A DNA stretch of 64,000 nt from Escherichia coli (GTDB taxonomy: Bacteria; Pseudomonadota; Gammaproteobacteria; Enterobacterales; Enterobacteriaceae): NCBI RefSeq assembly GCF_051903065.1, contig NZ_CP178438.1; one strand, given 5' to 3'. Each line of letters starts with the position of its first letter. The first letter of the stretch is position 1. Position numbers and translations under genes: made by a program. Positions 8,309 through 11,645 of this stretch are shown one piece after another. Under the pieces are notes generated by a model. That model saw nothing but the letters and a program-made list of their open reading frames with translations, did not search any database and was not told the DNA's origin.

Positions 8309-8975
8309 GGGAGAATTGTTTACGTGAGTGCAACGCGATAGAGATTTTCCGCCGCATAATCGTCAGAATAAGCGTCGATTTAATAGTTATGTAAGAGAAT
8401 CTTTACCGTTTCCATGAATGTACCTAAGGTCATTAGTTCTTTTCTGACAGCTTCCGGAAAATTTTTATGTAGAGCAGAAGGCGTAACAAGTCTATCCTCC
8501 CTCCGCTTCTTTCATTTTCTGGTATTGTGCCGGGGATACGCGTGGCAATTTCCGTGGCCATGGGGGGGCATCTTACTATACCTACGCTGAAGCGTGTGAA
8601 GGTCAGGGTATGATGACATGGTTAAATACTCACGGCCACTGCCTGACCTACTTGAGCAACGTACCGAAGCTGCTCAGCCCCGATAAACTAAGAAGCGCAG
8701 CGCTATGTTCCTGTCATCCACGACAGTAACCAGGCCCTGCAGAGTACTATGGTACGGTTATCATACCGGTTCACCCACGCAAACCAAAAGCACAAAAAAC
8801 GGTGTTTTCACCGTTGAAAGATAGCTGCTTGCCCGTATCCATAATGAAACCTTCCATGCACTCAGGACGTTGAATGGTAAGCATCCGGTGAACTCGCATT
8901 GCCGGCCGTTGTGAACCACGCCATTCTGCAGGTTCTTCCTTTATATGCAAAAGAGAGAAAACTGATGGCAAAAAA

Positions 8976-9263
8976 ATGACCCCGGCGCAGCGACGCCAGC
9001 ACTACGACGCCTGGCGCGTCAGCGGCATGTCCCGGACCGCGTATGCCCGGCAACACGGCATCAACAACAAAACTTTCTGGCATCTCTGCCGCGCCTTCTC
9101 CGCTGACGACGCCCGTGGCCCCGCTCCGGCTGATAACAGACCAGCCATCCTGCCGGTCACCCTCTCCGTCAGTGACACTGCCACCCTGAAACTTCAGTGC
9201 GCCTGCGTCACCGCCTCTCCGGCCGGCATCGCCGCCATCATCCGGGAGCTTAACCTGTGCTGA
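8976..9263 (+). CDS. tnpA: IS66-family TnpA (orf1)
   Basis: 95-aa ORF at 5' end of element in expected three-ORF arrangement. Confidence 0.7.
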   Translation: MTPAQRRQHYDAWRVSGMSRTAYARQHGINNKTFWHLCRAFSADDARGPAPADNRPAILPVTLSVSDTATLKLQCACVTASPAGIAAIIRELNLC

Positions 9264-9595
9264 GCCCTCATTCCCTCTGGCTCGTCCGCGAGCCTGCTGA
9301 CATACGCGCCGGCATCGACTCCCTGACGCGACTCGCCACTCAGGCCGCCGGGCATCCGCCCCGGGAAGGCGAAGCCTTCCTCTTCACCGGGAAAAAACGC
9401 ACCCGCATGAAACTCCTGATGTGGGACCGCCACGGCGTCTGGCTCTGCACCCGCCGCCTGCACCAGGGCGCCTTCCGCTGGCCCCGCGACGGCGACACCA
9501 CCTGGTCGCTCACGGCGGAACAGTTCGCCTGGCTTACCGCCGGCGTTGACTGGCTGCGTCTCTCTGCCAGCCCCCTGCAGAGGTGGACTGAATAA
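9257..9595 (+). CDS. tnpB: IS66-family TnpB (orf2)
   Basis: 112-aa ORF overlapping tnpA stop, typical IS66 organisation. Confidence 0.75.
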   Translation: MLSPHSLWLVREPADIRAGIDSLTRLATQAAGHPPREGEAFLFTGKKRTRMKLLMWDRHGVWLCTRRLHQGAFRWPRDGDTTWSLTAEQFAWLTAGVDWLRLSASPLQRWTE

Positions 9596-9669
9596 CCTCC
9601 TGTGCCAGAATCATAATACGGGCAGCTTCTTATCAGGATGTTCCCGCCCGCCTCTGTCATCATGGCTGC

Positions 9670-11346
9670 ATGACAGATGACATCCTGAACACCACACAAA
9701 ACCCCGATGAACTGCGCCGTCTGGCAACAGCGCTGCTGACGGCACAGGCATGCGAATATGAGCAGCGCCTTCATAACCTGAATACCGTCAACACCACGCT
9801 GGAACAGCGCCTCCATAACCTGAATACCGTCACCACCACGCTGGAACAGCGTATCCATGACCTTAATGCCGCCATGCAGGCAGAAAAAACCGCATATGAA
9901 CAGCGCATCCGGGAGCTGGAGGAGGCCCTGAAGCTGGCCCACCAGTGGCGCTTCGGGCGTAAAAGCGAGCGCCTCCCGGCCAGCCAGAAAACACTGGCAG
10001 ATGAGGACGCGGCCAGCGATGAGGCTGATATCACCCGGCAACTGAGCGACCTGCTGCCGGTGAAGGAGAAAACCGGGAAGAAGCCGGCCCGTCACCCCCT
10101 GCCGGCACACCTGCCGCGACAGGAAACCGTACTCATGCCTGAGACCGGTAGCACCTGTCCGGACTGCGGAAGTGAAATGCGACATATCCGCGACGAGGTG
10201 AATGAGGTGCTGGAGTATGTACCGGCACACTTCGTGGTGAAACGGACCGTGAGACCGCAGTACAGTTGCCCGTGCTGCGACACGGTGCACAGTGCCGTGC
10301 TGCCGCCGGCAGTCATCGACAAAGGGCAGCCGGGTCCGGGTCTGCTGGCGCAGGTGGTGACCGCGAAGGTGCTGGATCACCTGTCACTGCAGCGGCAGCA
10401 GAAGATATACGCCCGTGAAGGGGTACAGTTGCCGGAAAGCACGCTGACGGACTGGTTCGGGCCGACGGCGGCGGTGCTGTCGCCGCTGGCGGCAGCCCTG
10501 AAACGTGACCTGCTCAGGCAACCGGTGCTGCAGGCGGACGAGACGCCGCTGCAGATACTGGATACGCGGAAAGGGAAAGTCCGGAAAGGGTACCTGTGAG
10601 CATACGTGAGTGCGGCGGGCAGTGCCCGGGACATCGTGGTGTACGACTGCCGTCCGGGGCGTGCGGGGCAGTATGCGTGTGAGATGCTGAGCGGGTGGTC
10701 GGGGACTCTGGTGGCTGACGGTTATGCCGGTTACCGGGCGCTGTTCCGTGACGGGCAGGAAGGGGCCCCTCCGGCGGCACCGGGTATCTGTGAGGCGGGG
10801 TGCATGGCGCACGTGCGCAGAAAGTTCATGGAGCTGTACAGAATGAACGGCAGTCCGGGGGCGAAGGAGGCGCTGAAACAGATACGGGCGCTGTATATCC
10901 TGGAGCAGACCATCCGGCAGCGTCCGGCAGAGCAGAAATGGCGATGGCGACGGCGGTACGCGAAGCCGCAGATGGAGGCGTTCCACAGCTGGCTGAGGGC
11001 GACGGAAAAGACGAGCGCGCCGGGTGGCAGGCTGCACGGTGCGGTGACGTATGCCCTGAAGCGTTGGCCGGCGCTGGAAACATACCTGAATGACGGACGG
11101 GTACCGCTGGACAACAACCGGAGTGAGCAGATGATGCGTCCGGTGGCGCAGGGGCGGAAGTCATGGCTGTTCGCGGGTTCGCTGCGGGGAGGAGAGCGGC
11201 TGGCGGAGCTGCTGACGCTGCTGCACACGGCGAGGCTGAACGGTCTGGAGCCAGTAGTCTGGCTGCGTGATGTGCTGGAGAAGCTGCCGTCATGGCCGGC
11301 GTCCCGGCTGGATGAACTGCTGCCTTACCGCCATCCGGCGGACTGA
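9670..11346 (+). pseudogene. tnpC: IS66-family TnpC transposase interrupted by in-frame TGA (10597-10599)
   Basis: Two ORFs (9670-10599, 10606-11346) are in the same frame; stop falls in ...KGYL*AYVSAAGS... where IS66 transposases have a conserved GYLW motif; zinc-ribbon CPDCG...CPCC present. Confidence 0.8.
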
Positions 11347-11645
11347 ATACGCCCTGCCATAACGCCGGTGATCGCGCCATGCGAGTTCACCGGATGCTTA
11401 CGTTGAATGTACGTTTTTGGGATTTACTGACGGATATGAATAACCGGCCCATGAAGGAGTACGGCAAAACCAGCGCAGAACACTTCCGTATGCGCTCATT
11501 TGGGGCGGGATTTGCACAGTATTCAGCTTCCAGAATCTGTACACTTTTCCACTCACACAGCTTCCTCAAAATACAGCCTATTGCTCTACGCTTCTCTCTG
11601 TAGAACACCTGTCTTCGGTATTTTGGCGCAAAAACTATGTGATAT

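Follow-up and report, generated by a model that had tools for sequence, protein, structure and literature searches.

The IS66 family of insertion sequences (ISs) includes IS66 of Agrobacterium and IS679 of the Escherichia coli plasmid pB171, and its biology is reportedly covered by Han et al. 2001 J Bacteriol 183:4296 and by Gourbeyre et al. 2010 Res Microbiol 161:136. In these elements, tnpA, tnpB and tnpC follow one another in this order, with an overlap between tnpA and tnpB, while TnpC combines a leucine zipper, a zinc finger and a DDE_Tnp_IS66 domain; the ends are terminal inverted repeats of about 25 bp starting with GTAAGC. Insertion duplicates 8 bp of the target, a length given for IS66 in PMC6778807. 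We report here on an element sharing all of these features, located at positions 8877-11401 (2,525 bp) of a 64,000-nucleotide stretch of E. coli DNA (assembly GCF_051903065.1, contig NZ_CP178438.1), hereafter called the window. It differs from IS66 and IS679 in that its tnpC is broken by a nonsense codon, which would make it a non-autonomous relic. The analysis leads us to regard it, with high confidence, as a single old insertion whose tnpC has become a pseudogene and which has since been inherited passively, still decaying and no longer transposing.

A nonsense codon in the catalytic domain of TnpC

The tnpC reading consists of 309 open codons, a TGA and then 248 codons in the same frame down to the usual end of the gene (Table 1). 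Since the match to the DDE_Tnp_IS66 profile (284 positions) is split between an N-terminal piece covering profile positions 1-92 and a C-terminal piece covering positions 95-283, the stop cuts the catalytic domain itself; the N-terminal piece also matches LZ_Tnp_IS66 and zf-IS66, and the C-terminal piece DDE_Tnp_IS66_C. Codon 310 was repaired to Trp and the resulting protein was searched against 5.8 billion protein clusters, from which 103 listed homologues, each of at least 480 amino acids (aa) and 41-94% identical, were aligned. The column of codon 310 is Trp in all 103 homologues, within a motif G-[YR]-L-W-x-Y, and the closest intact relatives have TGG. The replacement of TGG by TGA, which on this comparison is a single G-to-A transition, had been proposed in a first-pass annotation of the window, where a Trp codon of a GYLW-type motif was expected, and the comparison bears it out.

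The same alignment delineates the residues likely to matter for catalysis. Asp290 (in QADET) and Asp350 (in VADGY) are present in 103/103 homologues and Glu486 (in DNNxxE) in 102/103; from this invariance and from the literature on IS66, these three are the presumed catalytic residues. In a C-x-A-H-x-R-R motif (residues 378-384), conserved as well, C378, H381 and R384 are invariant and R383 is found in 102/103. The TGA falls between Asp290 and the pair formed by Asp350 and Glu486, so that the 309-aa product would retain only one of the three presumed catalytic residues. Translation could resume at a GTG at 10606, from which a C-terminal open reading frame (ORF) of 246 aa extends. The DDE core would then come in two pieces, parted after the first of its acidic residues and before the second, and is unlikely to assemble, and the restart is further disfavoured because lesions accumulate downstream (see below). 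The interruption of tnpC is already on record, RefSeq/PGAP labelling the gene a pseudogene with an "internal stop" in the public genomes that carry it.

Another homologue, P0075, is also exactly 309 aa long (76% identical) and was considered as a possible recurrent stop at codon 310. It was ruled out, its equal length being coincidental: the protein diverges earlier, after ...ADETPLQ, and terminates in unrelated residues.

The element belongs to the IS66 family, as the first-pass annotation had stated and as the Pfam and NCBIfam matches confirm. The structural features expected of the family are present: the three consecutive genes on one strand, with a 7-nt overlap of tnpA and tnpB; a TnpB matching PF05717 (E=1.4e-31, 108.9 bits for a cut-off of 26.6); a TnpC matching LZ_Tnp_IS66, zf-IS66, DDE_Tnp_IS66 and DDE_Tnp_IS66_C; repeats of about 20-30 bp; and an 8-bp duplication. 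NCBI labels the element and its closest relatives simply "IS66 family". The perfect 23-bp inverted repeats and the intact duplication noted at first pass are both read at the element ends, with 23/23 identical positions and 0 mismatches between the repeats (0 matches are expected by chance). The repeats lengthen to 26 nt with one mismatch (25/26), and the octamer GTTGAATG stands immediately outside each end. The junction of flank and element reads ...CAGGACGTTGAATG directly followed by GTAAGCATCC... The previously proposed start, 8859, lies 10 bases too far to the left, whereas the proposed end, 11409, is right and the other features described at first pass are correctly placed.

Table 1. Features of the IS66-family element, of its insertion site and of the surrounding IS remnants (window coordinates)
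Feature	Position	Strand	Basis and remarks
In-frame TGA replacing invariant Trp310	10597..10599	+	TGG in intact relatives; context GYL*AY, codon 310
Left copy of target-site duplication, GTTGAATG	8869..8876	.	Read from sequence; single copy (GCTGAATG) in intact paralogous istA
Left terminal inverted repeat	8877..8902	+	Perfect across 8877-8899, GTAAGCATCCGGTGAACTCGCAT
Right terminal inverted repeat	11376..11401	-	Perfect across 11379-11401
Right copy of target-site duplication, GTTGAATG	11402..11409	.	Read from sequence
tnpA, 95 aa, intact	8976..9263	+	ORF; NCBIfam NF047593 IS66 TnpA, E=9e-11; RefSeq WP_000186597.1
tnpB, 112 aa, IS66-type accessory protein, intact	9257..9595	+	Pfam PF05717 (TnpB_IS66); NCBIfam NF033819 (IS66_TnpB)
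tnpC, pseudogene with one internal stop	9670..11346	+	Translation; Pfam domains split by stop; RefSeq "internal stop" flag
Two tandem 42-bp units in N-terminal helical part of tnpC	9760..9843	+	14 aa each, EQRLHNLNTV[NT]TTL, 93% alike
Left part of target, degenerate IS21-family istA remnant	8539..8876	+	RefSeq IS21 transposase fragment (locus coordinate + 5868)
Right part of istA remnant	11410..11491	+	Continuous with left part after removal of the IS and one duplication copy
IS3-family copy	about 5422-6635
Second IS66-family transposase fragment, unrelated to the element	about 6668-6899
IS4 fragment	about 6871-7017
IS200C fragment	about 11509-11656
IS256-family gene, frameshifted	about 11646-12313
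IS30 copy	13498-14649

One insertion shared by many genomes

A search of 5,426 complete E. coli genomes gave 157 records that match the entire element at >=99%. A left-junction probe of 200 bp, composed of 100 bp of flank including the duplication and 100 bp of the IS, likewise matched 157/5,426 genomes (about 3%), at one place in each, always on the chromosome and always over its full length; across the same genomes, it revealed neither an IS end beside another flank nor a flank lacking the IS. The carriers come from humans, poultry, pigs, dogs, a panda and water. All TGA copies are thus one orthologous insertion at one chromosomal junction. That it should be relatively recent, as had been suggested from its pristine ends, is not supported for an insertion that is common to 157 genomes of such varied sources, predates the spread of the locus through them and bears the nested later lesions described below.

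With a probe of 81 bp centred on the stop codon, 147 genomes were matched, 146 of them identically, and the remaining one, strain E9, differs elsewhere and keeps the TGA, which is hence found in 147/147 complete E. coli genomes carrying this segment of tnpC. Pattern searches allowing either TGA or TGG returned four metagenome contigs, all with TGA, and the element ends present on them (three right, two left) all share the flank of the window. The same pattern had no match in 100,044 species-representative genomes, and in a collection of 72,556 plasmids this region was matched only by the TGG copy of pSB109 (see below). Across genomes, plasmids and the metagenome scan, neither a TGG allele at this locus nor a TGA copy at another site was found. 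The indirect evidence on autonomous transposition is negative, each of the 157 carriers having a single copy at a single site and tnpC an internal stop.

These counts also bear on whether the TGA is real. A sequencing or assembly error, which the first-pass annotation had kept in view as a prior possibility and which nothing else recommends, would have to have arisen identically in the 81-mer of 146 independent complete assemblies, in one more that differs only at another base, and again on four metagenome contigs; the chance of this is negligible, such an error is excluded, and the TGA is a real, inherited base. The annotation had further held that TGA in all copies of the IS would count against its reading. 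All copies do carry TGA, which is uninformative because they all descend from one insertion event.

Decay downstream of the stop codon

Five copies from this locus were compared, namely that of the window and those designated L001, L003, L004 and L006. None of the latter four departs from the window copy by more than 5 changes across 2,525 bp (<=0.2%). Further lesions, some of them disabling, are nonetheless seen in carriers. A C11128T change turns Gln487, directly after Glu486, into TAG; the base itself was read in two copies, strain AMSCJX02 and one metagenome contig, and since the 81-mer spanning 11128 agrees fully with the window in 86 of the 147 genomes and differs in the other 61, by one base among the matches listed, 61/147 is an upper figure for TAG. 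In strain AMSCJX02, a run of G at 11186 is also shorter by 1 bp, and the 81-mer with this deletion is found identically in 10 genomes. In one genome, IS421 is inserted in tnpC, while 10/157 junction-bearing genomes lack the tnpC segments and 7/157 have no match covering >=80% of the element. The lesions are nested: every copy has the TGA, many have the TAG too, and a few have the deletion besides. This is a pattern typical of pseudogenes and argues against selection on the part of tnpC following the stop, which readthrough would need to translate.

At such low divergence, intact ends and an intact target duplication tell nothing about activity: the ends reflect the <=0.2% difference among copies and not recent movement.

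A further difference concerns position 9991, where the window and strain ZF8-1 (L001) have A (Thr107), and L003, L004, L006 and the intact relatives that were aligned have C (Pro). This A is a young single-nucleotide polymorphism inside the pseudogene and marks a sublineage.

The scenario that best explains these data is the following. An IS66-family element transposed once into a degenerate IS21-family istA within an IS-rich island of an E. coli chromosome, making the 8-bp duplication usual for the family. A G-to-A transition, most likely after insertion, changed the Trp310 codon to TGA, so that translation would stop between Asp290 and Asp350/Glu486 and yield a 309-aa product which keeps the leucine-zipper and zinc-finger DNA-binding parts and is presumably unable to catalyse transposition. 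The copy has since been inherited passively at one locus, some lineages gaining further disabling mutations.

Three observations weigh against this scenario. The TGA is the sole lesion in the copy of the window, and reading by Trp-tRNA would there give wild-type TnpC, so that complete loss of function is something we infer. Both tnpA and tnpB are intact in all copies read, although this is expected by chance because mutations are overall so few. Lastly, the locus has yielded no TGG allele, which leaves the mutation after insertion a matter of deduction as well.

The order of the two events is accordingly the point on which another history can be envisaged: the TGA may predate the insertion, an intact sibling with the same ends having supplied the transposase that placed the defective copy in trans. 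The absence of TGG at the locus among 147 genomes would fit, and there are intact siblings elsewhere whose terminal repeats are identical to those of the copy or nearly so. However, no complete E. coli genome contains another TGA copy or an intact sibling at >=95% identity, and among the plasmids searched, the sole close intact copy comes from Salmonella. Placement in trans also requires one extra event and leaves the present nature of the copy unchanged. We consider it improbable; mutation in place is the more likely course because it needs fewer events.

If the element is indeed a passively inherited pseudogene, it is an instance of routine IS decay, an ordinary feature that matters little in itself. 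As a stable single-locus marker, with its nested lesions (TGA, TAG at codon 487 and the 1-bp deletion), it could help to trace the carrier lineage or the island.

Readthrough and inhibition as possible residual functions

Natural UGA readthrough is exemplified by the A1 protein of phage Q-beta. In natural isolates of E. coli, release factor 2 (RF2) is more efficient than in K-12, so readthrough should be lower in them. UGA is read by Trp-tRNA in competition with RF2, to an extent that in a K-12 reporter amounted to about 2% at 37 C and rose to 4% at 25 C (PMC10570021). The tnpC stop resembles the natural cases documented in E. coli (the reporter and nudL; PMC10570021) in being an in-frame UGA decodable by Trp-tRNA, which here would even restore the original residue. 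It differs from them in that it is not conserved among independent copies, has no stimulatory context or structure and is followed by sequence that is not maintained.

It is biochemically plausible that a trace of wild-type TnpC would be made from the window copy in this way. One may go further and imagine the leaky stop as an attenuator, rare reading by Trp-tRNA keeping the element weakly autonomous and the stop being tolerated or even favoured as a brake. The K-12 rates, the TGA as the only lesion of the window copy and its fixation in 147/147 genomes are all compatible with such a device, and if it operated, a seemingly dead element could still move where conditions raise UGA readthrough. 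The element is nevertheless confined to one copy at one site, with no new insertions in 157 genomes, 72,556 plasmids and the metagenome scan; further lesions (the TAG, a frameshift and an inserted IS) pile up downstream; the independent relatives all have TGG; and shuffled sequences fold just as well as the RNA that follows the UGA. We therefore judge an attenuating stop very unlikely.

The hallmarks of programmed recoding are missing one by one. The stop is not conserved in independent copies, codon 310 being Trp in 103/103 homologues and TGG in three relatives read as DNA. The downstream frame does not seem to be kept under purifying selection, given the TAG (up to 61/147), the deletion (10) and IS421 (one). 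A SECIS-like or otherwise readthrough-promoting hairpin was sought after the UGA and none was found, the 70 nt from the UGA folding at -28.8 kcal/mol for a shuffled mean of -28.7 kcal/mol (z = -0.04), and 3' stimulatory structure or context is thus lacking as well. The suggestion made at first pass that low-level UGA readthrough would restore a full-length protein finds no support as a functional process in view of the absence of a second copy in the carriers, the downstream decay and the missing RNA structure.

A different role might be imagined for the truncated product itself. The 309-aa TnpC, with leucine zipper and zinc finger and no catalytic core, could have been kept as a DNA-binding inhibitor of incoming IS66 elements, in likeness to truncated transposases that inhibit other ISs. 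Its ORF is intact in every copy read, the disabling lesions lying past the stop, and the product forms a large protein-database cluster (P0014, 205 member sequences). Against this, the N-terminal part shows 2 non-synonymous and 1 synonymous changes among the five copies read, the 7/157 junction-bearing genomes noted above have no match to >=80% of the element, and in most carriers there is no close relative of the IS66 family on which it could act. Retention as an inhibitor seems to us extremely unlikely. More broadly, that copies of the window type should be very weakly active, self-throttled ISs or, in a variant, should inhibit related IS66 elements through their 309-aa fragment has little probability, and we retain the passively inherited pseudogene as the best explanation.

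Comparison with intact relatives

The closest intact copy read as DNA is that of pSB109, an IncC plasmid of Salmonella enterica (NZ_CP101857.1, 103501-105985; TnpC WP_111995052.1). It is 97.3% identical to the window copy over the whole element, with the same gene order; the outermost 16 bases agree at either end, and an 8-bp duplication of its own, GAAATTAC, flanks it. Its intact TnpC scores 459 bits on NF033517. Whereas the pSB109 copy has TGG at codon 310 and one 42-bp unit and sits on a conjugative plasmid, the window copy has TGA and two units and is fixed in the chromosome. Two further relatives, L011 (a Logan contig whose TnpC is 88% identical and which has its own duplication, TACCGAGA) and L012 (about 83% DNA identity), also have TGG at codon 310.

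The ratio of non-synonymous to synonymous substitutions (dN/dS) relative to the pSB109 copy is 0.27 before the stop (9670-10596) and 0.39 after it (10600-11343). Both values being <1, most of the 2.7% divergence built up with both lineages still functional, and compared with it the stop is young. For the same reason, dN/dS was rejected as a means of dating the stop, the divergence mostly predating inactivation.

Synonymous divergence from the pSB109 copy is uneven: in tnpC, pS is 0.073 in the C-terminal part and 0.027 in the N-terminal part, i.e., 2.7 times higher, and tnpB has no synonymous change. This distribution points to a history of mosaicism or recombination between sibling elements.

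The inverted repeats vary at positions 17-18 (window 8893-8894 and 11384-11385), which read CT in the window and GG in pSB109 (L002 2017-2018 and 4467-4468), in both repeats. CT is found in the left repeat of the window, L011 and L012, and its complement in the right repeat of the window and L011; both ends have thus changed in concert between two 97%-identical elements. The tandem 42-bp units of tnpC vary too, with one in the pSB109 sibling and two in the relative P0003/L011 (TnpC 88% identical), their number hence differing between otherwise close, intact elements.

Insertion site and genomic surroundings

With the IS and one duplication copy taken out, the joined flanks are colinear with an intact, ISSso4-like istA of the IS21 family carried by an E. 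coli IncF plasmid. Identity is 78%, the alignment runs through the junction gap-free, and a single octamer (GCTGAATG) stands in place of the two of the window. A true empty site was not encountered in E. coli, the left flank never being found without the IS in the 5,426 complete genomes, and the evidence for the empty site is this paralogous istA at 78% identity. It shows the event to have been a simple insertion, into an istA remnant that was degenerate beforehand, in agreement with the simple insertion and 8-bp duplication first proposed.

The element lies amid IS debris (about 5400-14700) that includes IS21, IS200C, IS256, IS30, IS3/IS911, IS4 and another IS66 fragment (Table 1). A gene for a 1,165-aa autotransporter beta-barrel protein (848-4345, minus strand) adjoins this IS cluster, and the matching genome ZF8-1 also has an Ag43/Cah adhesin, a YeeP-like GTPase, an Hha/YmoA regulator and an inovirus Gp2-family gene. 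These autotransporter adhesins and CP4-type genes place the element in a CP4-type integrative island.

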